This document shows, one piece after another, positions 17,072 through 58,275 of a DNA stretch of 64,000 nucleotides. Positions within the stretch are counted from its first letter, which is position 1. Each line of letters opens with the position of its first letter. The stretch comes from Candidatus Amesbacteria bacterium. GTDB taxonomy: Bacteria; Patescibacteriota; Microgenomatia; CAZETR01; Amesbacteraceae. Made by a program: the position numbers and the translations under genes. The stretch is from positions 88,050 to 152,049 of the forward strand of contig CAVTQH010000004.1 in assembly GCA_963736875.1 (NCBI GenBank), read 5' to 3'. The notes under the pieces are model-generated. The model did not search any database and had not been told where the DNA came from. It was given only the letters and a program-made list of their open reading frames with translations.

Positions 17072-18242
17072 CCTCAGGAAACGTATCTCCTCATATTTCA
17101 GGCCTCCGGTAAAACTTGGTCCCAAAACAGAAAAATTAGTGAAAAATATTTCTACCGTTGAATATATTAGTGTAAATTCGGAAATCGAAGCATTGCTTCT
17201 TGAAAGTAGATTAATTAAAAAATTTAAACCTTTTTACAATTTTTTATCAAAGGATGATAAATCACCTTTTTACATCCACATTACCGATGAATTATTTCCC
17301 AAACCTCTGATTAATCATAATCCTCAAAATTCTTTTTCAGGCCCATTTATAAACAGTCTTACTCCGCAAAGAATATTAAAAAGTTTCAGACCTGTTACAC
17401 CGTATTGCGGTTCAACCCGACCGGTTAAAAAACCTTGTTTTTATTCTCATATCGGTTTATGCCGCCCATGTCCAGGATCAGGCGAGTCTGAAGAAATAAT
17501 TCATACCTACCGGGAAAATATATTCCGTCTGAAAAAATTATTAAAAGGAAATTTCTTCGGAGTTACATCCGGTCTTAAGAAAGATATGGTATCAGCCACA
17601 AAAAAGCAGGATTTTGAAAATGCTGCAAAAATTCGTGACCAGTTGACTGCTTTGTCATATATTCTTAAATCTCCCGTCAGGCCGGAAGAATATTTAATTA
17701 ATCCGAATTTAATTGACGACCGGAACCGTGAAGCAGTTACTGAACTTCAAACTATATTAGAACCGTATTTTCCGGCACTCGGAAACCTTTCCCGCATAGA
17801 AGCGTATGATGTATCGCATTTATCCGGCACGTTCGCCACAGCTGCAATGGTGGTTGCCGAGAACGGTTACCTGAAACCGGATGAGTATAGGCATTTTAAT
17901 ATTAAGTATTCTCAATCTGATTCAGATACTGCCATGATGTCCGAAGTAATAATCCGCCGTTTTAACCGCATAGATTGGCACAAACCGGATTTGCTGCTTC
18001 TTGACGGGGGAATACCCCAACTGTCATCGATAACGTCATTAACTTCCGTTCAGATTCCTCCGGTAATTTCATTGTCTAAAAAAATTGAATCTATTAATAT
18101 TCCGACAAAAGCAGGTTTTAAAGAAATTCAATTACCTAAAGATAATCCTGCATTAAAACTATTAATGAATTTGCGTGATGAAGCCCACCGGTTTTGCCGG
18201 CGTCTGCACCATCATGGCCGTGCTAAAATAATCCTGACATGA
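16947..18242 (+). CDS. uvrC: Excinuclease ABC subunit C, short form (GIY-YIG + UVR + central domain; no C-terminal RNaseH-like/HhH region)
   Basis: GIY-YIG block PGVYIFKN...VIYIGKANNLRKRISSYF, UVR domain (ENAAKIRDQLTAL), RDEAHRF motif. Only 431 aa. The start is uncertain because it overlaps the previous ORF by ~125 nt. Confidence 0.75.
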   Translation: MEHLQLSSQSHSSLLPSLPTTPGVYIFKNLQAKVIYIGKANNLRKRISSYFRPPVKLGPKTEKLVKNISTVEYISVNSEIEALLLESRLIKKFKPFYNFLSKDDKSPFYIHITDELFPKPLINHNPQNSFSGPFINSLTPQRILKSFRPVTPYCGSTRPVKKPCFYSHIGLCRPCPGSGESEEIIHTYRENIFRLKKLLKGNFFGVTSGLKKDMVSATKKQDFENAAKIRDQLTALSYILKSPVRPEEYLINPNLIDDRNREAVTELQTILEPYFPALGNLSRIEAYDVSHLSGTFATAAMVVAENGYLKPDEYRHFNIKYSQSDSDTAMMSEVIIRRFNRIDWHKPDLLLLDGGIPQLSSITSLTSVQIPPVISLSKKIESINIPTKAGFKEIQLPKDNPALKLLMNLRDEAHRFCRRLHHHGRAKIILT

Positions 18243-37390: not shown

Positions 37391-37549
37391 TGAATATACC
37401 ATAAATTTTAACACTTAAGCTTGTTTGCAACCCTCTAATATGTATACAATTAGGTAGTGATTTCCATCCTGCCTCTGTTTGTATCATTTTTTGCGCTGTT
37501 AAACATATTCATATTTTCCCCGCCATCCGGCTGTTCCTGCTCTACCGAT

Positions 37550-40500
37550 ATTGCCTCCGGCTGTTCTGGGTATTTCAAATTACGCCCCTACCGTCTATAT
37601 CAGTAATACTTCCGACGGTTACAATGCGGGGGGTGTTTTAAGTCAATCCAGCCTTGATGAACCTGCCATAAATCTCTCCACATACAATTCCACCGGTCCG
37701 GCTTCGCTTGATATTTATCAGGCTTCAATAAATGATGTTTTATCTTTTTTAACCTACGATTCCGAAAGCAAACAAAAACTTATGTTTGATTCTTCTCAAC
37801 TTTCCAAAGTTACTACTTTAACCACCAATATTTCTTCCTCCGGAGACAACCGCCTGCTTTTACCGATACAGGGAGAGGGTATTTGGTTTCTGAAAGATTA
37901 AATTCGGCCAAAACGAAAATTCCGCTTTTTTAATCCGTTCGGAAATCGAAGCCGTTGTAAAAGAAGGCGACAACAAGCTTCTTTTCTGGGTTCAAAATCT
38001 GACTACAAAAAAAACTGTTACCTCCGGTGTCTTAGAATTATTCAACCTTCTTGATTCTCCCCGGTCCCTGATCAAATCCGGTCTGGACGGTAAAGGTGTA
38101 ACAAGCATTTCTTACTCTCCTCAAACTTACGATGTCGCAATACTAACTTCCGATAATCACACCACCCTTATACCCATAAATATGCGTTATTTAAATTTCG
38201 GAGACCGTTACAATCAGTTTCTTCCCAGAAGCCGCATGTCACGGTATTTTATTTTTACCGACCGTCCGCTATATAAACCCGGTGATACGGTATATTACAA
38301 AGCCGTCATCCGGGATGATAACGACGTCCGATATTCCATACCAAAAGGCTTGGCTACAGTCCGGGCTTTTAAAGACTGGAATGTTCAAAGCGCATTTTTT
38401 TCCCAGACTCTCCCCGTCTCCGATAAAGGCACCATTACCGGACAATTCACTCTTCCGGTCGCCCAGGGAACGGGACACTTCCAAATCTCAATCCAAACCC
38501 AAAACCCCGGTGTCACATCCGGTGATTGGGAATATGAATCTTTCGGACAGGACAGTATCGGTTTTCAGGTCGAATATTTCCGAAAACCGGAGTACACCCT
38601 TGACGTCTCAACCCCCTATACTGAATATCGTCGCCGGTGATCAAATCGAGTTTACGGTCTCGGGTGCTTATTTTTCCGGTGCCCCGCTTAACCAGCAAAA
38701 CGTAAAATATTCACTTTACTCATCAAATTATTACGAATATGAATACCTTTTCAATAACCAAAATCTGCCGTCCGGCAGCAAATATTACGGCTACTGGAAC
38801 GGAAATAAAATCCAGGATGGTGAACTGACTTTAAACGGTACGGGACAGGCCAGCTTTTTAGTTCCTTCTTCCGACGGCAGATATAAATCCTCACGTTCAC
38901 AAATATTTTCCTTTGAAGTCCAATTTACTGACGAATCCGGAAATCCCGTACTGGCCAGAAAAAATATTCTGGTCTATCCCGCAGAGTTTAATATTTACCG
39001 CCGGAGTGGCTTTTATACCGGTCAAACAAACCGGCCGTTTGTCCTTCCGATAATTGTAAAAAGTATTCGCGGCAGTCGGATCAACGATCTCCGACTGACC
39101 GCCGGCATTCTCCGTGAAAGCTGGATTGCTCTTCCTTTGACACCAGGTCAAAAATATCCCACTTATGTAAAAGAAACCGAAAATCTTTCCTCATCTGTCC
39201 GCCATCACCAACTCCCTTGGTGAAGCCCAGTTTTCTTTTACTCCGGTAAAGACCGGTTCTTATACCTTTACCATCAGCGGTACTGATCAGAAAGGAAATG
39301 TTGTATCCAAAAACATGTACATTTGGATATCCGATACTACCCGCCCCACCCCAACCGGTCAGTATTATGAGGAGTTAAAGATAGAAACCGATTATCCCTC
39401 CTATCAGCCTGCGGATAAAGTAAATTTAAAAATTTGGTCTGATATCCCGGACCGGGATTTCCTGCTCACCTGGGAACGCGGCCGTGTCAATCGCTGGCAG
39501 ATCGTTAAGCTTTCAGGGCAATCCTCAAGCTTTACGCTGCCTCTGGAATATACCGATATTCCCAATATCTATATCACTGTCTCCGGTTTTTCTGAAAGTT
39601 CTTTCCTTTCGGATACCGTTAATGTAGATGTTTCTCCGGAAAGCCAGCGCTTAAATATCAGTCTTTCTCCCAACCTGAGCAGATACGGCCCCGGTCAGTC
39701 GGTAGTCCTTGACGTTAAGACCACTAATCAGCTTGGCAAACCTGTATCCGCTGACCTTGCCGTTTGGGCTGTTGATAAAGCCATATTCGAGCTTTCTGAC
39801 TCAAACGTCAGCGATATTTTTAATCGTTTTTGGTCAACCAGGGGCAATCAGACCAGCACCGGCCATTCACTTGAAAATATTTTGGTAAACACAGCTGAGG
39901 GAGGCGGCTGTTTTACAGCTGATACTAAAGTTTTAATGTCCGGTGGTTTTACCAGATCCATTGAAGACGTCAAACCTGGTGATACCATCCTGACCCGGGT
40001 ATCGGCAAACGATTCCCGCCTGACAAAAGCCAGGGTTCTGTCCACCCATTCTGCTACCGTTGACGGAATAATTATTTTAAATTCCCGTCTGAAAGTTACC
40101 CCCAATCATCTGCTTTGGGTAAATAATTCCTGGAAGACAGCGTCTCAAATCAAAAAGGGAGATATTCTTTCCAACTTTTCGGGCTCGTCAAACATTGTTA
40201 CTTCCGTTGAATGGCAAGCCGGTAAAATCCCCGTCTACAACTTAAAAATTGCAGATTTCCATACATATTTTGCCGAAGGAATCTGGGTCCACAATGACAA
40301 GGGAGAAGGAAGCGCCCGCTCGATATTTAAAGACACGGCATACTGGAATCCCACAGTTACCACCGACAGACTGGGTCAGGCCCAGGTAGTATTTACTCTT
40401 CCGGACAATCTCACTACCTGGACAATTGCTGCAGTCGGATCCACTGCAGACACCCAGGTGGGTCAGACTACGACGGAAATTATCTCATCAAAGGAAGTCA

Positions 40501-42539
40501 TTGTCAGACCGGTTCTTCCCAACCTGATTCGTATAGGAGACAAACTTCGGATTTCGGCTCTGGTGCACAATTTTACTGATGTTACTCAGGATTTTACCGT
40601 CGGCCTCAATTTTGACTCCGGCCAGATTACTCCTCCAGCCACTCATCAGCCAGTATCCATCTTACCCAATAATTTCCGCAGTTTTAGCTGGATTATTTCA
40701 CCGGATTCCGTAAATCCCGTCCGCCAAACTTACATTTTCGGCCCAAACCGCATCCGGTAAATCCGATTCTGTGCAGTCTGTTCTTGCCGGTCATCCCCTT
40801 CGGTTTTATGGAAACCAGTGCCCGGATCGGAAACGGAAATCAATCATATTCCGTCGAATTTCCCCCTGACGCGGATTTATCCCAATCTTCAATTACTCTT
40901 TCACTTGGCTTCAAACATTTTGGGAACCTTGCCTGCGGCTATGAAATACCTCATCGGTTATCCCTATGGATGTATCGAACAAACCACCAGCCGTCTGGTC
41001 CCGGCCATAATTACCAAAGCCAACCTGGATATTTTTTATGACGCTCTTGATCAGAAAGATATTACAAAAATTATTTCTGCCGGTCTTAACCGGTTATCCG
41101 CATTAAAATCCGTTGACGGCGGTTGGGGTTGGTGGCACTCTGTTCAAAATTCTGATCCTTTTATTACTTCGTATGTTCTGGAATATTTGTTCCTGGCCAA
41201 ATCTTCCGGCATCGAAATACCCGATGAACTTATAAAACCGGCTGTAAATTTTCTCAAGTCTTACAATCCCAAGGACGAAAATTCCCGTGTTTACAAGATT
41301 TACGGACTTAAATATTGCGGGTGAATCGGAAGGAAAAGAAAAATTAACAAATTTCGATGCTTATTCACCGGTATCTTTGGCATATGCCGTTATAAGCAAT
41401 GCCAAAAACGGAGACCAGAATCCCGATACCAACGGTTTAAAAAATCTTTTGTCCCGCTATAAAACCAGCGGGGACAATATTTATTGGGAAGCCGATTCTC
41501 AAAGTACTTTTCCTTCTTTGGAAGCCTCTACCGCCGTTTCGATCCGGGCAATTATCCAAGGAGGAGGGAACAGGGAACTGGCAGTCAAAGCCGCCCGTTA
41601 TCTGTCTGGGCAACCGCAAAAATAATTATTGGGCTAACACCTTCGCCACTGCTCAGATTATCAGAAGTATTACTGATCTTCACCGCACCGGTGGTGAAGC
41701 TGATCCCAATTTTTCTTATACGTTTAAATTTAACGACAGTTTGATAACCTCTGCCCAGATCACTTCCTCTGTCCAGCTTATTAAAGATATCGTTATTCCC
41801 GCCGCTTCAATAAAAATCGGATCAAATAAGTTCGATCTGTCATTCACCGGTACGGGACAAATATACAGTACGTTACTCCAAAATATCTGGCGTACTGATA
41901 AGAATGCCTCTCCCCAATCACATACAATTTCTTTATCCCGAAAATATGTAAACGACAAAGGAGAAGACTACACACTGGGAGTCGGTGACAGTGTTTCGGT
42001 TATTCTGACCGTTATCGGGTTTACCTCCTGATGCCCGTTATTTGGTCATCGAGGACTATCTTCCGTCCGGTTTGATACCTGTAAACACCAATCTCTTAAA
42101 CGAAAAGGCTGATAATGATTATTCCGTTTCCAAAGAGTATACGGCAAACGGTGCAATCATGTTTTCCCCGGTAATCGGTAACACGACATCATATTCATAC
42201 AAAGCCCGGGTAATTTCCCAGGGAGAATCAGTAGCCCCTCCCGCTATGGCGCAATTGATGTATCAGCCTGAAGTAAATGCCCTTAGCGAAACCAGTACTC
42301 TGATTACGGAGGAATTCAGCCGTTCTACCAAAACCCCGGTTGAAAATATCACCCGGTCAATTAAAAAATTCAGCCTTATCATTACCCCAAATTATTATTC
42401 TGGGATTATTAATTATCATTCCCCCTCCCTTCATCTTTTTAGACGATCAGAATCATCAAAAATCGTCACCCACCCCATCCTATTGAGTAAATTGAAAGCT
42501 GTCCAGTATTTTCCCAAAAGGCACCAACTCTTCATCTGA
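37550..42539 (+). CDS. Alpha-2-macroglobulin family thioester-containing protein (~1650 aa) with a Hint/intein-like insertion; reading frame changes ~9 times in this assembly
   Basis: MG-domain motif FIFTDRPLYKPGDTVYYKAV. Post-bait motif FKDTAYWNPTV...LPDNLTTWTI (equivalent to FPETWIW...PDTITEW). Thioester motif YPYGCIEQTTSRLVP. The ORF pieces 37551-37901, 37894-38640, 38282-39223, 39171-40760, 40818-41324, 41287-41625, 41741-42031 and 42042-42539 are collinear with A2M. Confidence 0.7.
39909..40295 (+). other. Hint (intein / bacterial intein-like) domain, 129 aa, inserted in the A2M bait region
   Basis: N-terminal CFTADTKVLM (block A), VTPNHLLWV (block B, TxxH), C-terminal VYNLKIADFHTYFAEGIWVHN (blocks F/G ending HN). 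The +1 residue is Asp, not Cys/Ser/Thr. Confidence 0.7.
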
Positions 42540-44005: not shown

Positions 44006-44076
44006 TTATCCTTGAGCGGGTAAGGGGAATCGGACCCCTGTATTCAGTTTGGAAAACTGACGCCCTGCCATTGAGC
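44006..44076 (-). tRNA. tRNA-Gly (anticodon TCC)
   Basis: Hand fold: acceptor GCGGGTA/TACCCGC, anticodon stem TCAGT/ACTGA with loop TTTCCAA, T-loop TCCGATT. Confidence 0.8.
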
Positions 44077-44114
44077 GATACCCGCAGGTCTTCTGATTAT
44101 ACCTAAAAATATAT

Positions 44115-44825
44115 TTAAAGAAGAATAAAACTCATCAGGCTGGCGTCCAACTGCCCTTGATATTTTTCCCAGGCTGAATTCAAGGCCGTGGCGGTAATTA
44201 CATAAGCCTTACCCTTATCAATAAGTATCAGCTGCAGATTATGTAACGGATATACCCCCATGTCATACCTTGCCTCCAATATGACTCCGTCTTTTCCCCC
44301 GATTGTTTTTCTTTGTTCATTTATCAACTGATAGTTTGAAAATGACTTTGTCAAAACTTCTTTGCTGGCTGCAAGATAATCATCCAAAGTTACATCGACA
44401 GCCGCTTCGGATACGACATTGATATTTACGGAAAATTTATTTCCCGAGTCATCGTCGCTGACTGTATTAGCCACACTCACCAATGTTCCGAAGGACCCGC
44501 TTTCATCAACCCTCCAATCTTTAGGATGAGATATCTTAAATCCTCCCTTGCTGCTGGTAAATTGTTTTAACTCAACATCTCCGGTTACCGTCAAACCGCT
44601 GTCCGTAGCTTCACTAACCGGCGATAACAGTTGATTCTCTCCGGAAGGAAGGGGGGTTTCAACTTTCGATTTCTTAATATTACCCGCGATTAACTTGCTG
44701 ATCATCCATATCCCTGCTATTACGCCGGCCAATCCTACAATCCCCAGAATTATCCAGATTATCATTGCTGATTTTTCTTTGACTTCAGACTTATCGGTTT
44801 TCAAATCATAAGCATTCTTTATCAA
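44115..44825 (-). CDS. Membrane-anchored PsbP/DUF1795-like protein
   Basis: N-terminal TM after a short cytoplasmic tail. The C-terminal domain pattern (F.I.HP.DW...GS) is PsbP-like. Starts with TTG. Confidence 0.35.
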   Translation of the reverse strand: MIKNAYDLKTDKSEVKEKSAMIIWIILGIVGLAGVIAGIWMISKLIAGNIKKSKVETPLPSGENQLLSPVSEATDSGLTVTGDVELKQFTSSKGGFKISHPKDWRVDESGSFGTLVSVANTVSDDDSGNKFSVNINVVSEAAVDVTLDDYLAASKEVLTKSFSNYQLINEQRKTIGGKDGVILEARYDMGVYPLHNLQLILIDKGKAYVITATALNSAWEKYQGQLDASLMSFILL

Positions 44826-45119
44826 AATCCGATTTTGTTTCTGTAATCTCGGCTTTATCGGCTATCCCCAAGTCAAATTTGCTGGTTCCGCTGGCATCAC
44901 CGGTTGTCACAGCGACCGAACCGTCAGATTCCAAACCCGGTACTTTCAGCGCCTGGAATGCCTTTTCAATATCTTCATCTGCCCAACCGCTTTCAGCCAA
45001 TATTTTCCTAATTTCCGGATCAGTTATTCCGGCTTTAAGTTGCTCCCTGATATAGTCTACTAACTCCTGGTTCACTTCCTCAAGTTTATCATGAAAACTT
45101 TCCCAATTCCCGTATTTTG
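44806..45119 (-). CDS. Hypothetical small acidic protein
   Basis: The ORF-table ORF 44806..45222 runs into tRNA-Pro, so the real start must be downstream of 45120 (non-ATG start likely). Confidence 0.25.
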
Positions 45120-45191
45120 TCGGAGACGAGGGAATTGAACCCTCTACCTCTCGGTCCCAAACCGAGCGTTCTACCGATGAACTAGTCTCCG
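45120..45191 (-). tRNA. tRNA-Pro (anticodon TGG)
   Basis: Hand fold: acceptor CGGAGAC/GTCTCCG, anticodon stem CTCGG/CCGAG with loop TTTGGGA, T-loop TTCAATT. Confidence 0.85.
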
Positions 45192-45195
45192 TATG

Positions 45196-45280
45196 TGCCG
45201 AAGGCGGGACTCGAACCCGCATGAAGTGTTATCTTCGGGGGCTCTTAAGGCCCCTGCGTCTACCATTTCGCCACCTCGGC
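45196..45280 (-). tRNA. tRNA-Leu (anticodon TAA), type II
   Basis: Hand fold: acceptor GCCGAGG/CTTCGGC, anticodon stem GGGGC/GCCCC with loop CTTAAGA, long variable arm, T-loop TTCGAGT. Confidence 0.8.
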
Positions 45281-45303
45281 ATATACAAATTATATTATAA
45301 TTA

Positions 45304-45389
45304 TGTCGGTAATGGGCGAGTGCTGAAATTGGTATACAGGCATGCTTGAGGAGCATGTGGCCTTAATCGGCCGTGCAGGTTCAAGTCCT
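45304..45389 (+). tRNA. tRNA-Leu (anticodon GAG), type II
   Basis: Hand fold: acceptor GGGCGAG/CTCGCCC, anticodon stem CATGC/GCATG with loop TTGAGGA, long variable arm. Confidence 0.8.
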
Positions 45390-45391
45390 GT

Positions 45392-45409
45392 CTCGCCCAC
45401 CGCCTGCCG
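45392..45409. repeat. GC-rich hairpin element GCCTGCC-GGCG-GGCAGGC; its exact reverse complement recurs at 63168..63185
   Basis: 18-nt near-palindrome between tRNA-Leu(GAG) and tRNA-Leu(CAG). The inverse-orientation copy lies after rplT. Confidence 0.5.
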
Positions 45410-45425
45410 GCGGGCAGGCCCATCC

Positions 45426-45511
45426 GGGCGGATGGCGGAACGGTAGACGCGCTAGCTTCAGGAGCTAGTGACCTTAAAACGGTCGTGGAGGTTCAAATCC
45501 TCTTCCGCCCA
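45426..45511 (+). tRNA. tRNA-Leu (anticodon CAG), type II
   Basis: Hand fold: acceptor GGGCGGA/TCCGCCC, anticodon stem CTAGC/GCTAG with loop TTCAGGA, long variable arm. Confidence 0.8.
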
Positions 45512-45531
45512 CAGTACAATTGCTATAATAT

Positions 45532-45605
45532 GGACGATTAGCTCAGCTGGTTAGAGCGCCTCTCTTACACAGAGGAGGTCGGGGGTTCGAGCCCCTCATC
45601 GTCCA
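45532..45605 (+). tRNA. tRNA-Val (anticodon TAC)
   Basis: Hand fold: acceptor GGACGAT/ATCGTCC, anticodon loop CTTACAC, T-loop TTCGAGC. Confidence 0.85.
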
Positions 45606-45629
45606 CAAATAAAAAGCAAACAATCTCAA

Positions 45630-45702
45630 GCCGAGATAGCCAAGGTGGTCACGGCGGGCGCCTGAAGAGCGTCAGATTGAGGTTCGACTCCTCATCTCGG
45701 CA
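45630..45702 (+). tRNA. tRNA-Phe (anticodon GAA)
   Basis: Hand fold: acceptor GCCGAGA/TCTCGGC, anticodon stem GGCGC/GCGTC with loop CTGAAGA, T-loop TTCGACT. The D-arm is atypical (3-bp stem, 11-nt loop). Confidence 0.75.
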
Positions 45703-45737
45703 CACCCTAATTTAGCTTTGTTTATGTGTTATATTAG

Positions 45738-46540: not shown

Positions 46541-46614
46541 TTCATTTAATGTAAAATTAACGGGGTATGAAGAAAGGATTGTTCTTCTTCTGCATATTGG
46601 GTATTTGTTTTTGA

Positions 46615-47404
46615 TTAAATTACTTCATTCATCATTCTCTTAGTTATTCTCTATTAAACTCAATTATTTTTCTGCTGGGAATTTGGCAACTTTTTAAGTC
46701 ATCAAATATTATTTATTTACTGGGATTGGCAATAATGCCGATTTTGACATGGTACAGCAGTTCGCTTATTCCCGGTTTGGGGGTTCTTGCTTTTGAAGTG
46801 ATTATGATATGGGGGTCAAAAAGTAAAGGCGTTATCCGGACAAGTCTTCTTACCTTCTCTGCCATGATATTTTTTATATCTATGTTGCTGACCAGCGGCA
46901 TCCTGCGCTATGAGGGTTCAAAATCCGGAACTGTTAACAGAGAACAATTGTTTTTTTATCAGACCGATTCGGTAACTGCGTTGGAAAAAACTACTGGTAC
47001 TTTTCAAACAGATTTATGGGGTAAAGGAATACCTTTTACCAGGTCTAAATACGTTCATAATATGCCTGTGAGTATTTTGAACCGGTTTTTCAGAAACCTG
47101 ACCGAATTTTTATATCTGCCGAATTTTTATCAGACAATATTACTGGCAAATCTTTATCTTATCTTACTGGGAATAATCCGGACAAATAGTATTCAGGCTA
47201 AAGACATAAAAATATTACTGTATGCAGTTTTCGTCCATATTTTTAATCGTCGTGGGAGCATCATTGCACATAGGGAAAAATGCAGCGATTTACCCGCTGA
47301 TTCCCGTACTAATATTTCTTGCAGGACAGGGGAGTGCTAAAAGCAAACTGCCGGTTTATATGGGACTCTTAATATTTCAGTTACTGTTTTTGGGATGGGG
47401 ATAG
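46615..47404 (+). CDS. Polytopic membrane protein, Wzy/O-antigen-ligase-like; interrupted by an in-frame TGA upstream and a frameshift near 47230
   Basis: Hydrophobic ORFs 46615..47340 and 47222..47404. A short MKKGLFFFCILGICF peptide lies upstream in the same frame and ends at TGA 46612..46614. Confidence 0.3.
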
Positions 47405-47407
47405 TTT

Positions 47408-49015
47408 ATGAAATCTAAATTCGTTACTTTGACTTTCATTATATTTATCGTGGCATTATTTATTCGAATTGTCGGAATGGGCAAAGTACCTCCCCACTTA
47501 TCTAATGATGAGATTTCCATTGCTTACGATGCTTACTCCCTGCTTCATACCGGCCGTGACGAACATAACCACTTATTTCCGTTGTCATTTCAGTCACACA
47601 ATACATATAAAGCGCCTCTCACGGCTTATCTGCTGATTCCAACCACGGCTATTTGGGGACCTTCGGAATTGGCATCTAAATTACCTTCAGCAACACTGGG
47701 GTCGTTAACCGTTTTGATGCTGATAATCATGACATGGCAAATATTTCGTTTAAAATCTTTGGCATTATTTTCAGGAACCGTTTTAGCCATAACACCATGG
47801 CATATTTACACTTCACATATGATTTTAGAATCAAATATTGCCTTATTCTTCGTAATCACCGGAATATCATTATTTTTTAAATATCAGGAAAACCGGAAAT
47901 TGAATGTTTTAATATTTTCCATGATTTTCTTTTCTCTTTCGGTTTACAGCTATCATACGGAGTGGCTTTTTACCCCGTTGTTACTGGCGGGGATGGGATT
48001 AATATTCCGGATTAACTTAAAGTTAAAAGATATTATTACGGGAGGTTTGGTTTTCGGAATTTGCATTTTACCTCTGGTAATTGATACATACCGGCAAATC
48101 GGACAGAGCACCCGGGGTAATACCGAAGCCATCATTTACGAACCTACCCTGCAGGAGACACTGAATAATCCGCGACTTTCGCTTACATCAAAAACCCGTA
48201 CTTTGGTAAATGCCGTTATCAGCAATTATGCAAATTATTTTAATTTTGGATATCTGTTTTCGTATGGATTGGATATTCCGCCAAAACCGTTAACCACACA
48301 GTCGGGTCTATTTTTAGGCATTTTTTTACCGTATTTTTGATTGGTTTATATTCTCTATCCAGAATATCCGGGAAAAGAAAAATACTTTTTAATATTATTT
48401 CTTTTACTCGCACCGGTGATACCAGCAATGACTAAGGGCGGATCTAACTTCGTCCGGGCATTGGTGATGGTGTTACCGCTTTCCATGGTTATCGGCTCTG
48501 GGATTAATTATGTCTGGAAAAAAACAAATGATATAAAATTCAAAATCTGTCTGATAGTTCTGCCTATTGCCATCACTTTCGGATATTTCAGCCTGCTATA
48601 TTATTTTCACTATCCAATACATGCCGGTGAGAATTTTGCATATGGTTACAAACAGATAGCTGATTACATTAATTCTCATCCCGGCCAATACCAAAAAATT
48701 GTGGTTGATCCGAAATTCGGTACAAATTACGAATTTGTAGGCGTACCTCACTTATATCTCGCATATTTTACCCATTATGATCCGGAAAGATTTCTCCTTG
48801 AAAGAAAAGATTTACCTACCGGACTTTACTTTTCACCTTTCGAGATCAGGGAAATCAATTGGGGAGCAGAGAAACCCACCGTTAAAGCTTTATACATTTC
48901 TCCAACAGCAAACTTACCTGCAAATAATCGCGGGGATTTATTATCAGTCAAAACAATTTATTACCCCGATGGCCATGCGGCGTTTGAAATATTTGAAGGA
49001 ATTGCGAAGCCGTAA
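47408..49015 (+). CDS. GT39/GT83-family (PMT/ArnT-like) membrane glycosyltransferase; two collinear ORFs in the same frame separated by an in-frame TGA at 48338..48340
   Basis: N-terminal DE..Y motif (SNDEISIAYDAYSLLHTGRDE) and a multi-TM core. 47408..48340 and 48341..49015 are in the same frame (both positions are 2 mod 3), and the combined 534 aa matches the family size. Confidence 0.6.
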
Positions 49016-49020
49016 TTGAA

Positions 49021-50340
49021 TTACTTTGTCAAAATTTCTATCCAGGGTGACCAAACGGAGAGGGCATAGGTAACCGGAGTAGTCAATAAAAACCCTAGTA
49101 CTATCAATGCCATATATCCCTGTCTTACCCATTTACCCCATTTATGCATACCGAATTCGATTACTATCGGAACTAATAAATACCCGCACAATAATGCGGA
49201 AAAATAATGATACATAAAAACAACTCTGCCCACGAATAAAAATGGAACAAAAAATAATATAAATCCCAATATTGCCACTGACAGATGCTCTTTACTAATA
49301 CTCAGCCATTTTTCCCGTCGTGTACCGGACAAGATCACCCACCCGAACAACAATGCCCCCGGAACAGTTAACCATCCGATTTGATTTCCCGACAGTACAA
49401 TCACTGCATTTTTTGCCGAGTTAATAAATATCGGAATTTTTCCCAGACCCAATAACCATTCCCAGGGATGACTTGCTGATTCATGCTGCTGGTAAACTGT
49501 ATTTGCAGCAAACATGTGTACGAAGTGAGCGGGTAAATATTTAATTACATCAAATTTATTATTCATAGCCGGATACTCTATCTGAACGTAAAGTTTTTCA
49601 TAGATCGAAAACGGAATATTTTGCCTGACAGGTAACCTTCCGAAAAATATCATCCAGATTCCTAAATGAACTACCGTAATTACTGCCAGCATGACCAAAG
49701 CCTGTCTGAATTTTTTTTTATTCCCCAGTACTGCCAATGCCATGACCACAAATCCTAAGGCTATCCACTTAACGGAAATCGCAATTCCCAAAAATATTCC
49801 CGCTCCGAACAAAATCCAATTCCTGCGCCGGAATGTTTTTTTTAAAATATACAATAAAACCAGCATAACTCCTGTCATCCCGGTAAATAGCATCAGATTC
49901 TCGGGTAATATTAACCTTGAATATAAGACAAACGCATTATCCCAAGTAATCAACCAGGCTGGTATTAAAGCTAAATAGGTATTTTTATACAGTAATTTTG
50001 CCAGAATAAAAACAACTGCCGGAATCAGACAACCGATCAGTGCATTGACAATTCTCAGCGGTATATACGGAAAGTCACCGAAAATTTCATCACGGTTGAT
50101 TATTTTATTCTGATATGAAGGTGTATTACCGATACCTGCTACGGTAGAAAAAAACATTTGCGCAAAGGGGGGATGAACATCAAAATAGGGTCTTTTATAA
50201 AGATATTCAAGTATAAATGTGACACTCGCTCTCTCGTCAAAAATTATTGAATTCGGGTAATCAATTCTCGGAAATCTCAGACATCCTGCCAAAATCACAA
50301 TTATCAAAATTACTGCATAATCAATTCTTGACCACCCCAT
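49021..50340 (-). CDS. GT39-family dolichyl-phosphate-mannose-protein mannosyltransferase-like glycosyltransferase
   Basis: FDERASV...FDVHPPFAQ (the DVHPP hallmark of PMT/GT39), ~11 TM helices, 439 aa. Confidence 0.7.
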   Translation of the reverse strand: MGWSRIDYAVILIIVILAGCLRFPRIDYPNSIIFDERASVTFILEYLYKRPYFDVHPPFAQMFFSTVAGIGNTPSYQNKIINRDEIFGDFPYIPLRIVNALIGCLIPAVVFILAKLLYKNTYLALIPAWLITWDNAFVLYSRLILPENLMLFTGMTGVMLVLLYILKKTFRRRNWILFGAGIFLGIAISVKWIALGFVVMALAVLGNKKKFRQALVMLAVITVVHLGIWMIFFGRLPVRQNIPFSIYEKLYVQIEYPAMNNKFDVIKYLPAHFVHMFAANTVYQQHESASHPWEWLLGLGKIPIFINSAKNAVIVLSGNQIGWLTVPGALLFGWVILSGTRREKWLSISKEHLSVAILGFILFFVPFLFVGRVVFMYHYFSALLCGYLLVPIVIEFGMHKWGKWVRQGYMALIVLGFLLTTPVTYALSVWSPWIEILTK

Positions 50341-50504: not shown

Positions 50505-51087
50505 ATGAAATCGCTTTTACCGGTTTTAGTATTTTTTGCAGTCACGCCTGTTATTATTTTTCTTTCCGCTTCGCTTCTCCTTTCTTACTCTCAATCCGGC
50601 AATTATCCGGTATCACCTTCACCCAATAATGTATTTTCTGCCGTGGACGAAAAACCCTTTCCTGCCACCAATATTTTAGGTTACTTTTCAACGAGTGATG
50701 CCAGAGTATATATAGTAAAAAACTATCTTAAGAAATATTCATCTCCGTTAGAACCATACTCTCAAAACTTAATAAATATTTCTGATAAATATTCACTCGA
50801 TTATCGACTGCTGGTAGCCATTGCCCAACAGGAGTCCAATCTATGTAAAAAAATCCCGGAGTTATCCCATAACTGCTGGGGATATGGTATTTACGGTGAT
50901 AAAATCACCCGCTTTGACAACTATCCGCAGGCAATGGATATTGTCGCAGGTACTCTTAAGTCACAAATATATAGATATTGGGCTGGATACACCGGAAAAG
51001 ATAATGGCTAAATATACCCCGCCGTCTCTCGAAAAGGGCGGGCCATGGGCCAAAGGTGTAAACCAATTTATGAGCGATCTGGAATAA
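50505..51087 (+). CDS. Secreted peptidoglycan-hydrolase-like protein (glucosaminidase/transglycosylase-like AIAQQESN...NCWGYGIYG block); apparent frameshift near 51000
   Basis: Signal peptide MKSLLPVLVFFAV. The ORF-table ORF 50460..51011 starts inside the tRNA. The C-terminal continuation is in the +1 frame (50821..51087). Confidence 0.4.
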
Positions 51088-51095
51088 ATATTCTC

Positions 51096-51711
51096 ATGGC
51101 GGCTCACTACGACGACTCTCTCTTTTCCTACCCCGACTATTGGATCGGACGCGATTATGAACATACAAGTGAAATTCTCGCTCTTAAACATCTGTTAAAT
51201 AAGTGATCATTTTGAGTCTGCTGCAGATATCGGAGGAGGGTATGGACGGTTAATCCCTCTATTACAGAAATACGCCGGAAAAATTTCTTTGGTGGAACCT
51301 TCTCTCAAACAGCGACGTCAGGCTAAAAATTATCTCGACCCCCGAGCCAAAATATCCATTATTTCCGGATCTGCCCAAAAAACAGGACTTAAAGATAATT
51401 CCCAGGATCTGGTCGTTATGATCCGGGTGATGCATCATTTACCCCAGCCCCAGCCGGTCCTTCAGGAACTCCATCGGATTTTAAAACCAGGCGGAAAACT
51501 AATTCTGGAATATGCAAATTCCCATCATTTCAAAGCCCGTCTGAAAAGCCTTATAAACGGGCAGCCTCTGCTTCTTACCCCGATTGAAAAACGCAGTCTG
51601 ATAAATATCAAAAAACATACAATTTCTTTTGTAAATCACAGTCCTGTCTCCATTCAAAAACTGCTTTTTACAATCCGGATTTACCGTTATCACCACTCTC
51701 TCCGTATCTAA
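51096..51711 (+). CDS. Class I SAM-dependent methyltransferase; apparent frameshift near 51200
   Basis: N-terminal piece MAAHYDD...ALKHLLNK ends at a TGA. Motif I DIGGGYGR and the downstream VVMIRVMHHL...LKPGGKLILE continue in another frame. Confidence 0.5.
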
Positions 51712-51839: not shown

Positions 51840-52775
51840 CTAAACTGAGAATATTTGACTTTTTGGAAGACCCATAGTAATATACGACCAGGTTTCGTAG
51901 CTTAGCTTAACCGCTTTGCTGTGAGATTTTAAAAGCCTCGGCACTGGGCAGGAGCCGGGGCTTTTTTTGTGCCTAAATTTCATACTATAATCAAACTGTG
52001 CGCCTCGTGGTGAAATGGTATACACGCAGGCTTTAGGAGCCTGTCCCAGCGATGGTGGTAGGAGGTTCGAGTCCTCTCGAGGGCACATTACAAACTTACT
52101 TTCCTGGCTTCTTTCCATTACTCTGAAATTATTATTCCCTGGATTATTTACCAAATCAGCCACCCGGTAAGCTTCCATTTTATCCGTTTCATTAGGTTCC
52201 ATTATTTTCTTGAGTCTTTCGATATCAAAAAATTTATTATTCAGCCAATCCTCTTCATCTTCTGTATTTAGTATTACCGGCATCCGGTCGTGAATTTCCA
52301 TCATTGTCTTATTTGCCTTTGTAGTCACAATTGAGAATGTCTTAATCTCAAACCCCTGGGCATCTTTCCAGATATCAAAAATTCCGGCAAAACCGAATAT
52401 TCTTCTTTCAACAAGCCTGATCCAATATGGAATTTTAAGTACTTTTCCCCGATCGGAAACTTTTCTCCACTCAAAAAATCCGCTGGCCGGTACCAGACAT
52501 CGCTGCTGTCTGAAAGCTTTTCTGAAAGCCGGTTTAACTTCTATCTCCTCGCTTCTGGCATTAATTGTGCTGTAGCTGATACGCGGATCCCTGGCCCAGA
52601 ACGGAATCAAACCCCATTTCATTTTTTCCACCTTTTTGGGGCTTTTCATGGTTACCACCGGCATTATCATTCCCGGTGCCACGTTATATTCCGGTGACAT
52701 TTCCACCTCGCGGTTTTCAATTTCAAACCGGTCATAAAAATCTTTTTCCGGTATAAATCCGTATCTTCCGCACAT
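51840..52775 (-). CDS. yedK: SOS-response-associated peptidase (SRAP/YedK/HMCES family) abasic-site processing protein
   Basis: N-terminal MCGRYG (Cys2 nucleophile) and SGFFEWR motifs. The family length (~230 aa) implies an end near ~52100, but the ORF stays open to 51840 and reads antisense through tRNA-Leu(TAG). Confidence 0.75.
   Translation of the reverse strand: MCGRYGFIPEKDFYDRFEIENREVEMSPEYNVAPGMIMPVVTMKSPKKVEKMKWGLIPFWARDPRISYSTINARSEEIEVKPAFRKAFRQQRCLVPASGFFEWRKVSDRGKVLKIPYWIRLVERRIFGFAGIFDIWKDAQGFEIKTFSIVTTKANKTMMEIHDRMPVILNTEDEEDWLNNKFFDIERLKKIMEPNETDKMEAYRVADLVNNPGNNNFRVMERSQESKFVMCPREDSNLLPPSLGQAPKACVYTISPRGAQFDYSMKFRHKKSPGSCPVPRLLKSHSKAVKLSYETWSYITMGLPKSQIFSV
51935..51968 (+). 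terminator. Rho-independent terminator (9-bp GC stem + T7), A-tract on the other side
   Basis: AAAAGCCTCGGC-ACTGGGCAGGA-GCCGGGGCTTTTTTT. Confidence 0.6.
52001..52085 (+). tRNA. tRNA-Leu (anticodon TAG), type II; the first two acceptor-stem pairs are mismatched
   Basis: Anticodon stem CAGGC/GCCTG with loop TTTAGGA, long variable arm, T-loop TTCGAGT. The 3' acceptor CGAGGGC faces 5' CGCCTCG (C1-C72 and G2-G71 unpaired). Confidence 0.6.
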
Positions 52776-52784
52776 ATTCCGATT

Positions 52785-54042
52785 TTAACTCATAACTATC
52801 TCCTCCAGCTCTTTTATCCCTCCGAACGCTATCCGGTCAGGTACCAGATCCGCCGCTCCCAACATCAGAGCCGGAGTCAGCACAAAATTTCCCCATCTTT
52901 CGTTTACCTTATCCACCGCCGCCACCAGACTTTCCTTTTTTGCTACCTCCTCCAAAAATGTTGTTTGCAAAACGCCTTGTTTTACTAAATCAAATCCTGA
53001 TACCGCCAGTGTATGCACGGGTTTCCGATACGGGGAAGAGACCATTATCCGCCTGGCTGCCTTATAAATATCCCTGCTGTCAAAGATCGGATCGGGCTGC
53101 ACCTGCCCATGATGCCACCAGGAAAAATCACGGTACAGCATCCCCACATGCACTCCCCGGGCCCGATACCCGGCCCGCCGCATTCTCATCCCCATCTTAA
53201 AAACCAGTTTGTGCAAAATCGGCGACAATTCTTCAGGGCAGGAAACCGGTTTGGGCAAAGCATAACTGTTCCCGTAGCTTCTCCGGGCAAACACCACATC
53301 GTCAACCTCAAACCCCCTCAGACGTAAATACCAATAGTATCCCAGTACCGAACCAAACGCAGCTTTCAGAACAGTTGCCCGCGCTGCCCAAAAATCAACC
53401 ACGGAAAATATTCCGAAATAATTCAGACGGGCTGCGTTATTACCCTTGATTCCGCACAAATCCGCCAGTTTCAAACCCATATAAATTGTCAGAAAATTAC
53501 CTTTGTCAATCACATCCAGCCCGTCCGGTTTGTGCAGAGAAGCTCCGGTTTTGGCCAGCCACCGGTTGGGAGCAATCCCCACCGACACCCGCAAAAAATC
53601 CCCCACTTCCTCTCTGACCCTTTTTTTAATCTCCGTCGCCACCTCCACCATCCCCCTGCGCCGACAGGGGGCTCCCTCCAAATCCATCACAAATTCATCT
53701 ATCGACTTGGGTGTCACTTTATCGGTATAAGTCCCCAACAAGCTGCTTCAGTTTAAGATGTACCGACCGGTATTTATTCGGATCCGGCGGTATCACTATC
53801 AGTTCGGGTACCAGCATTCTGCCGTCTTTCACCCGCATTCCCACCCGTACCCCCAGCTTCTTGGCTTCCACCGAAGGAGCAATAATGCATCCCCCGGGGG
53901 TCGTATATGCCGCCACCGCCACCGGTTTACCCCGGAGGAGGGGATTGGCCTGCTGTTCCACACTGGCAAAGCAGGAATTCAGGTCCAAATGGATAATCGT
54001 CGGCTCTTTTGAATTAAAAGACAAATCAGTCAGCTTCTCCAT
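52785..54042 (-). CDS. dinB: Y-family DNA polymerase (DinB/UmuC-like, Pol IV/V class); N-terminal 107-aa and C-terminal 318-aa ORFs split by an apparent frameshift
   Basis: N-terminal IIHLDLNSCFASVEQ motif (the conserved DxxxFFAxVE block). C-terminal VGIAPNRWLAKTGASLHKPDG and the little-finger region. Noticeably GC-richer (~57%) than its neighbours. Confidence 0.8.
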
Positions 54043-54286
54043 CGCTTATCTCCTCCAAAGTCCAAAAAAGATTATCCGTATCCAGAACCAGGCGGAAAAA
54101 AAGGCTTTCGGACACTACCGAAAACACATGCAGCAAGGTCCTCCCCTGGCGGAATACGTGGTGATACCCCACCCGGCGTATCAGATAGTCCCGTCCGTCA
54201 AATACCACCCTCACGGGGCCTACCTGCCGTTTCCGGTGATCATAAAGCGTCTCTACTGTCACCGGAACTTTCAACTTTTGTATCAT
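54026..54286 (-). CDS. Hypothetical small protein encoded first in the Y-polymerase/SRAP operon, possibly a polymerase accessory factor
   Basis: 86-aa ORF overlapping the polymerase start by 17 nt. No motif recognised. Confidence 0.3.
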   Translation of the reverse strand: MIQKLKVPVTVETLYDHRKRQVGPVRVVFDGRDYLIRRVGYHHVFRQGRTLLHVFSVVSESLFFRLVLDTDNLFWTLEEISDGEAD

Positions 54287-56883: not shown

Positions 56884-58275
56884 GATGAACCTCCCCTTAA
56901 ACGTTCTTACCGATTTTTTACGGATTCCTTCCGTTTCCACCCAGCCTGAACAGGCGGGTGAATGTCTTCGGGCTGCAAATTATATTTCAGATCATCTTTC
57001 TTCTCTTGGGTTTCTCTTCCCGGCTTCTTCCCGGTAAAGTCCATCCCTCAGTCTTTGCCCAACTAACATCCGCAGCGGAAGACATCCGACAGTCTTAATT
57101 TACGGCCACTACGATGTCCAGCCGGCAGGAGCTCCCAGCCAATGGACTACCCCTGCTTTTGAACCGGATATCAGAAAAGGACGTATTTATGCCCGGGGAG
57201 CCACCGATAACAAAGGTCAGCTGATGGTTCAGATTCATGCGGTCAGCCAACTTATTAATAAGTACGGTCAAAATAATTTACCTCTGAATATTAAATTTCT
57301 GATTGAAGGTGAAGAAGAAATCGGCAGCCCGAGCGTTATGGATCAACTGACCGCATATCCCGAACTGTTTCGATACCGACTATGTAATTATTTCAGACAC
57401 CGAAATGCTGGGAGCCAACCGGCCGACTCTTGACGTCTCGTTAAGAGGTGTTATGGACATAGAAATTTCTGTTCAGACCGGATCTCATGATATCCATTCC
57501 GGCCAATTCGGAGGTTTGGCACCAAATCCGGCTTTTATTATGTCTCACTTATTGTCGCTTCTGAAAAATGGCCGTGACCGGGTATTAATTTCGGAATTTT
57601 ATTCGGATATTATTCCACCTACACCCAAAGAACTCGACGATCTGCGCCGTCACGCTCCCGATGTCAAAGATGTTCTTAAAGAAGGTCATTTTTTCTATCT
57701 TGGAGGCGGAGAACCTCATTTACCCATCAATCGTCGCCGTTGGTATGAGCCGACTCTGGACATTACCGGTCTCGATTCCGGTTATACCGGACATGGTACC
57801 AAAACAATTATTCCCGGCCGGGCCGATGCCAAACTTTCAATCCGACTTGGTCCCGTACCAGAATCCGCAAAAAATCTACTCCAATTTGGTTAATTTCCTG
57901 CAAAAACACGTCTCCAAAAATGTTGTTTTATCAGTTTCCCGTTCGGAAATTGCCCTGCCGTACCGGGCTCCTATAGAACATCCGGTTTACCACTTGGCGG
58001 GTCAGTGTCTGGAAAGCATTTTCGGCCACCCGGCAGCCTTTGTCGGTCAGGGCGGATCCATAGGTTTCGTCCCGGTTTTGGCTAAATCTTTAAACGTTCC
58101 CTGTGTCCTGATTGGTTTTGGTTTACCCGATGAAAATCTTCATGCCCCCAATGAACACTTTTCATTGTTCAACTTTTCCAGGGGTATTGAAGCTATGACT
58201 TTGTTTTACTCCCGTCTCGCCGATTTAAAACCTGTAGCATTAAAAAATCAGGAGACTAACAACTCACCCGAATAA
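56884..58275 (+). CDS. M20-family metallopeptidase (ArgE/DapE/dipeptidase-like); fragmented into at least five frames in this assembly
   Basis: PTVLIYGHYDVQPAG...WTTPAF...GRIYARGATDNKGQ metal-binding block, plus later M20 dimerisation and C-terminal blocks spread over ORFs 57224..57433, 57405..57893 and 57661..58275. Confidence 0.65.

Follow-up and report, generated by a model that had tools for sequence, protein, structure and literature searches.

Two in-frame TGA codons in adjacent accessory genes of a Microgenomates-type bacterium as probable gene-breaking lesions of separate origin

The stretch of Candidatus Amesbacteria DNA analyzed here (64,000 nucleotides of contig CAVTQH010000004.1, referred to below as the window, in whose positions all coordinates are given) carries two adjacent forward-strand genes that are each interrupted by an in-frame TGA codon. 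The first encodes a small membrane protein (46567-47404, + strand), and its frame from the ATG at 46567 meets TGA at codon 16 (46612-46614; site 1) and then remains open, without a change of frame, as far as 47340. The second encodes a GT-C glycosyltransferase (GT) of the PMT_2 family (GT39-like; 47408-49015, + strand, 535 codons), and its frame from the ATG at 47408 meets TGA at codon 311 (48338-48340; site 2) and is open on to the TAA at 49013-49015. Both stops had been pointed out in a first-pass annotation, and the bases are as it gave them. We conclude that the two TGAs are probably independent and ordinary mutations that break the open reading frames (ORFs) of two adjacent, decaying accessory genes in a Microgenomates-type genome of the candidate phyla radiation (CPR). 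They differ in origin and are unrelated gene-breaking lesions, to be seen as pseudogene lesions or, less likely, as assembly errors, and not as stop-codon recoding. This reading draws on the ancestral state that sequence comparison indicates at both sites, on homologs that are single genes, on the apparent use of TGA as a stop, and on other genes nearby that appear broken. It matches ordinary bacterial pseudogene formation as already known, and nothing in it is new in kind.

The upstream membrane-protein gene

The upstream gene is disrupted twice. When both lesions are bridged, the protein P0121 (278 amino acids (aa), 72% identity, 100% coverage) aligns with its product end to end, from Met1 to the last residue, and reads MKKGLIFTAIWVVCFGLNIYIHHS across site 1, where the window has MKKGLFFFCILGICF, then the stop, then LNYFIHHS. 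The relatives L036 and L035 carry TGT TTT GGA TTA AAT and TGT TTC GGA TTA AAT at this point and the window TGT TTT TGA TTA AAT, and in the DNA alignment with these two the frame is identical on both sides of the TGA; P0121 likewise has Gly at this position. The first-pass annotation had advised looking for the same TGA in related genomes, and it is GGA that L035 and L036 hold, in the same frame. On this comparison site 1 is a nonsense substitution, in which codon 16 would have gone from GGA (Gly) to TGA by one G-to-T change.

The other lesion, which the earlier annotation missed, is an extra G at 47233 (+ strand) that is absent from L034, L035 and L036. The window reads TTC G TCC where these three have TTC-TCA, TTC-GGC and ATC-GGA, respectively; the base lies outside any homopolymer, and its position is good to within 1-2 bases. 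This insertion would have shifted the gene by +1 near its 3' end: the last 57 codons continue in the frame of an ORF at 47222-47404, and it is this shifted frame that matches the C-termini of the relatives.

The earlier description of the gene as Wzy-like does not hold up. Neither the window protein nor P0121 has a Pfam match, and NCBIfam gives the window protein one chance-level hit only (E 0.34); for Wzy_C and O-antigen ligase profiles in particular there is no significant Pfam or NCBIfam match to the window protein and no Pfam match to P0121, and the family is left unassigned by profiles. The AlphaFold model has a mean confidence (pLDDT) of 38.9 and is unusable for fold comparison. A search of 5.8 billion proteins returns a family of only five members, which shows no relation to the GT family in profile-profile comparison (probability 0.2%). 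Because the gene lies directly 5' of the glycosyltransferase gene in the relatives L001, L034 and L036, the two probably work together. We also note that L034 (25-672; a relative of ~85-90% identity) has lost the first ~130 codons of the upstream gene, and that what remains of it is joined, in the same frame, to the first ~69 codons of a DUF3368 (PF11848) gene. Either the upstream gene was disrupted independently in L034 or the contig is chimeric.

The glycosyltransferase gene and site 2

The second gene passes the PMT_2 test at 29.6 bits against a gathering cut-off of 26.1 (E 9.6e-07) and keeps the invariant N33-D34-E35 loop motif. The protein search finds 185 homologs, nearly every one from the Microgenomates group of the CPR, in lineages that include Shapirobacteria, Daviesbacteria and Amesbacteria. 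The closest of these, P0001, shares 66% identity at the protein level, and in a scan of a genome collection the nearest species is ~50% identical to the query. Among the 120 homologs listed of the 185, nearly all are single proteins of ~500-650 aa with 94-99% query coverage. It had been suggested that homologs might prove to be two genuinely separate genes that end and start here, but they are single proteins of ~530 aa that cover 99% of the joined query, and the disrupted loci are therefore broken single genes; over both breaks the homologs are uninterrupted single ORFs. The public record of the source genome annotates the two halves of the glycosyltransferase apart, as P0003 (310 aa) and P0126 (195 aa).

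The homologs also bear on whether the gene could be split and still functional, with translation stopping at TGA 48338 and restarting at the adjoining TTG (TGATTG) or at ATG 48428 and with the two chains forming an active GT-C enzyme; in the upstream gene, translation would likewise restart after codon 16. We consider this quite improbable for the two genes together. The TTG start does abut the stop directly (ORF 48341-49015), and the catalytic N-terminal loop motif NDEISIAYD is kept together with other invariant residues. However, all full-length homologs found are single chains and no split relative was seen, the break removes the segment around the invariant Gly313 inside a transmembrane region, and the second frameshift of the upstream gene is uncompensated.

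The sequence that follows site 2 points to a different origin from that of site 1. In a profile of 119 full-length homologs, the columns at this point are F at 310, L/I/F/V at 311, I/V/F/W/L/Y at 312, G at 313 (present in 118 of the 119), L/I/F at 314, F/V/L/I/Y at 315 and I/L/V at 317. Frame 0 reads F, stop, L V Y I L Y and is mismatched at nearly every column, whereas the -1 frame entered from the T run reads F L I G L Y S L, with Leu taken from TTG at 48337-48339; it agrees with every column and restores Gly313. When scored against the same profile, the -1 frame 8-mer reaches +9.3 bits, which tops all 982 off-frame 8-mers (maximum 8.9, mean -20) and falls inside the range of the in-frame 8-mers (mean 14.8), and the frame-0 8-mer scores -21.1 bits, below all 491 in-frame 8-mers (minimum -5.1). 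The TGA at 48338-48340, which stands on the L/I/F/V column, thus appears to be an out-of-frame stop exposed by a deletion and not a mutated sense codon. The nonsense mutation that the first-pass annotation had listed as a possible cause of both stops fits site 1 and does not fit site 2, where it is only in the -1 frame that codons 311-317 agree with the profile of the homologs.

We infer that the ancestral state at site 2 was a run of six T. With that run restored, CCG TAT TTT TTG ATT GGT TTA would read P Y F L I G L (compare PFFLIGL in P0001 and PMFLIGL in P0011), and homolog DNA carries the same codons, such as ATT GGT TTA in L018; the closest homolog with DNA over the site is 57% identical. 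The window has five T (48334-48338, + strand), and the loss of one T would constitute a -1 frameshift whose shifted frame meets TGA at once. The segment L I G L Y S L (48337-48357) would thereby retain the ancestral frame, at -1 relative to its flanks. From GKEKYF onward frame 0 again matches the homologs, and a +1 insertion is therefore placed between 48358 and 48376; its exact base cannot be fixed because both frames read G-K at 48370-48376. In a frameshift-aware alignment, which even when charged with two penalties of -12 outscores the in-frame path for all 7 homologs aligned, the return to frame 0 falls between codons 318 and 324. Because the DNA of L034 ends before site 2 and that of L037 (84% identity) begins ~40 codons past it, this reconstruction rests on protein profiles and more distant DNA. 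Site 2 is on these grounds not a nonsense substitution but a -1 indel with a compensating +1 indel, the second of which, 20-38 bases downstream, would happen to restore the frame and make the stop look in-frame.

All of these lesions are derived: L035 and L036 have GGA at site 1, the extra G is absent from L034, L035 and L036, and the -1 frame at site 2 is that of the profile. Translation would end at both TGAs through release factor 2 as in other genes, and neither full-length protein would be made. The first-pass annotation had argued that one indel cannot explain a preserved frame; the logic is correct, but indels are not thereby ruled out, and a compensating pair explains site 2. A preserved frame does not exclude indels, and the segment past a stop of this kind should therefore be compared with homologs in all three frames. 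The finding removes a candidate recoding signal and illustrates how a stop may look in-frame when two indels compensate each other. The closeness of the pair is not surprising, as at ~1.5 indels per kb the occurrence of a pair within 40 bases somewhere among ~17 indels would, by our own estimate, be only somewhat less probable than its absence.

The same short segment could in principle be reached by programmed frameshifting, with a -1 slip on U UUU UGA at site 2, the reading of LIGLYSL, and a +1 slip near AAA AGA back to frame 0. The U UUU UGA sequence is slippery: tRNA-Phe can re-pair perfectly at -1 while a slow stop codon occupies the A site, and conserved sequence is encoded in the -1 frame. 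There is here a likeness to the prfB CUU UGA +1 and dnaX A AAA AAG -1 sites, in that a slippery homopolymer stands just before UGA and the alternative frame gives the conserved protein. In contrast to those sites, two efficient shifts in opposite directions would be required 7-12 codons apart, there is no stimulatory structure, and the homologs are unshifted, with none having such an arrangement. Nor would it apply to site 1, where the frame is unchanged, and we put the probability of programmed frameshifting close to nil.

Phase variation of surface-glycan genes by slipped-strand changes in T tracts, which the first-pass annotation also offered, is hardly more credible. Site 2 is a change in T-run length inside a glycosyltransferase gene, and in this it resembles the contingency loci of Campylobacter, Haemophilus and Neisseria, in which a change in homopolymer length inside a surface-glycan gene switches the frame. 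The tract here is only 5-6 T, however, and known contingency tracts are usually of 8 or more. A length change alone would not toggle the ORF, as restoring T6 leaves the downstream +1 indel in place and the gene still broken; site 1 is a base substitution and not a change in tract length, and longer runs elsewhere in the window are not tied to breaks. The locus thus differs from known contingency loci in its short tract, in its second and fixed indel, and in its point substitution.

UGA as a terminator

The two TGAs share the surrounding 9-mer TTTTTGATT, which had been put forward as a common context. It is common to both, but it is not remarkable: the window has six copies against 3.9 expected, and six or more are reached in 18 of 100 shuffles. 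Since the 9-mer is not enriched in the window, the identity of the contexts carries no weight, and it is a coincidence in T-rich membrane-protein coding sequence.

The first-pass annotation had TGA as a normal terminator elsewhere, and this is borne out. Both uvrB, which spans model positions 2-652 of 653, and thrS, which spans 2-564 of 565, terminate on TGA, as do 20 of the 65 long ORFs of the window, several of them within overlapping gene junctions. Such use of TGA at the ends of conserved genes does not agree with a reassignment of UGA as in code 25 or code 4. In bacteria, UGA is on record as reassigned only to Gly, in Gracilibacteria and Absconditabacteria, and to Trp, in Mycoplasma-like bacteria and some endosymbionts, and no reassignment is known in Microgenomates (PMC8629427).

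The reading of UGA as an amino acid at these two sites, whether as Gly in the manner of code 25, by near-cognate readthrough, or as selenocysteine, with TTTTTGATT as a promoting context, nevertheless has some points in its favor. The relatives have GGA (Gly) exactly at site 1, an invariant Gly lies two codons past site 2, and UGA-to-Gly decoding is known within the CPR (PMC8629427). The other observations argue against it, beginning with the TGA termini of uvrB, thrS and the long ORFs. No tRNA with a UCA anticodon is present among the 15 tRNAs of the window. There are only two in-frame UGAs to set against the homolog columns; that of site 1 does fall on Gly, but that of site 2 falls on L/I/F/V and on none of G, W or C, and the sequence there is explained without gaps by the -1 frame. 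The folding of the 70 bases past each TGA is no more stable than that of shuffled sequence (z 0.06 and -0.49), with no hairpin or structure like a selenocysteine insertion sequence (SECIS) past either codon and no Rfam match after either, and the homologs have Gly or Leu/Ile/Phe at these positions and not Cys or selenocysteine. The 9-mer, being no more frequent than expected, lends no help. Both TGAs are, moreover, followed by U, which reportedly (Poole, Brown and Tate, in 1995) makes an efficient termination context in bacteria. We regard decoding of these UGAs as very improbable, and the readthrough or recoding that the first-pass annotation had considered finds no support in genes whose housekeeping neighbors use TGA as a stop and in RNA that shows no structure after either site.

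A narrower form of the same idea would have a bacterium of the Microgenomates lineage read some UGA codons as Gly, in an ambiguous or context-dependent step toward code 25, with UGA still a terminator elsewhere. If true, this would explain the GGA of the relatives at site 1, and that one coincidence is its sole footing. The likeness to code 25 as found in Gracilibacteria and Absconditabacteria is that the host here also belongs to the CPR and that relatives have a Gly codon where site 1 has its stop. It differs in that TGA ends uvrB, thrS and ~30% of the long ORFs here, that a tRNA-Gly(UCA) is not seen, that site 2 is not aligned to Gly in frame, and that the lineage is Microgenomates-like, with no reassignment known (PMC8629427). 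Such ambiguous decoding strikes us as highly improbable.

Broken and intact genes across the window

At least three, and probably four, further accessory genes of the 64-kb window are broken, which together with the two TGA genes makes at least five and probably six. Of all these lesions, the first-pass annotation caught the two that leave the frame intact; it missed the many that shift it. The largest of these genes encodes an alpha-2-macroglobulin (37503-42536, + strand) that lies in at least nine open segments in alternating frames, with at least 8 frame changes; its MG2, bait-region, A2M, thioester (TED; GCIEQT) and MG10 domains are on separate pieces, and it also holds the same-frame stops TAA 40758 and TGA 41322. 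Between its bait-region and A2M domains there is a Hint or intein-like domain of ~135 aa (~39894-40298, + strand), bounded by CFTADTKVL and GIWVHN and followed by Asp and not by Cys, Ser or Thr; by these features it appears closer to a bacterial intein-like domain than to a splicing intein. An M20 peptidase gene (57038-58272, + strand) is spread over three frames, with Peptidase_M20 1-84, the dimerisation domain, and Peptidase_M20 115-203 in turn. A dinB-like Y-family polymerase gene (52788-54045, - strand) has a frameshift near 53722-53747, which leaves IMS 1-79 and 83-145 in different frames. Finally, a class I methyltransferase gene (51012-51708, + strand) has an open segment at 51199-51708 that contains the full domain and has no start codon before the S-adenosylmethionine-binding motif. 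A plausible N-terminus is present in another frame at 51084-51203, and the gene is probably frameshifted. This methyltransferase was compared with the one beside P0121 in L035 and rejected as its ortholog.

The genes for cyclophilin, uvrA, uvrB, phosphoenolpyruvate synthase, enolase, phosphoglycerate mutase and thrS are full-length in the window. The density of indels is roughly 1-2 per kb in the broken genes, and ~45 kb of coding sequence outside them is free of indels. The switch from a broken gene to an intact one takes place within 5-10 bases, a pattern that fits selection and does not fit regional sequence quality. A second PMT gene (49024-50340, - strand; 439 aa, with PMT and PMT_4TMC domains) is intact and lies convergent to the broken glycosyltransferase gene at a distance of 5 bases, and it may render that gene dispensable. 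An intact SRAP gene likewise sits between the probably broken methyltransferase gene and the broken dinB gene.

It is from this pattern that we think the lesions probably real mutations in decaying genes and not consensus errors. The alternative, that they are errors of consensus or polishing in a metagenome-assembled genome and that the real genes are intact, is in our view rather unlikely, with several observations on its side. The lesions are almost all 1-base indels (~17 against 1 substitution), and two of them lie at homopolymer edges, with TTTT-GG given as TTTTT-G at site 1 and T6 as T5 at site 2. Two indels that compensate each other within 40 bases are also seen in consensus artefacts, and the glycosyltransferase gene retains nearly all of its conserved residues. 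For the relatives of the locus, assembly yields only contigs of 1-3 kb, which hints at a region that varies between strains and resists assembly. Sequence errors, however, would be expected to fall without regard to gene boundaries, and in the window intact and broken genes alternate; nor should such errors spare the ~45 kb of housekeeping and other genes that have no lesion. Homopolymers of 4 or more are absent from several of the frameshift intervals, that of the extra G at 47233 among them, and none of the intervals has a run longer than 5, whereas the many runs of 7-9 A/T in the window are mostly outside these intervals. The loss of the 5' part of the upstream gene in L034 was also counted in favor of real decay, with L034 possibly being a chimeric contig.

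Some further points weigh against real decay. The bases are known from one assembly alone. The broken genes have ~17 frame changes against 1 nonsense codon, and such an excess of indels is more skewed than in typical decay of bacterial pseudogenes and resembles residual consensus errors. CPR genomes are usually compact, so that ~9% broken genes in one window is high. Outside its shifted segment the glycosyltransferase gene has otherwise kept its sequence well: it deviates at 5 of the 91 columns that are at least 90% conserved, as compared with a homolog median of 3, and any real inactivation would therefore be recent.

Compared with bacterial pseudogenes annotated as 'internal stop' or 'frameshifted', the genes described here are alike in that a sense codon of relatives has become a stop, that 1-base indels break conserved single genes, and that several accessory genes of one stretch are hit with housekeeping genes intact. 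They differ in an unusually high ratio of indels to nonsense codons (~17:1) and in the one compensating pair of indels, 20-38 bases apart, that mimics an in-frame stop. If the lesions are real, the five or probably six accessory genes in 64 kb were broken almost entirely by 1-base indels, and either recently relaxed selection or an indel-prone mutation spectrum would be indicated in a normally streamlined CPR genome.

A few other features of the window were noted. An apparent split of uvrC at 18239 was dropped, as the next ORF is an unrelated membrane protein. The ORF of the SRAP (SOS-response peptidase) gene (51843-52775, - strand) runs ~100 codons beyond its domain and over the antisense of tRNA-Leu(tag) at 52001-52086, which would fit the loss of a stop codon or a run-on ORF. 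The broken genes noticed are all within 37.5-58.3 kb, and none was seen in 1-37 kb. Just upstream of the two TGA genes eight tRNA genes lie densely clustered over both strands (44014-45703), with specificities for Gly, Pro, Leu (three), Val and Phe.

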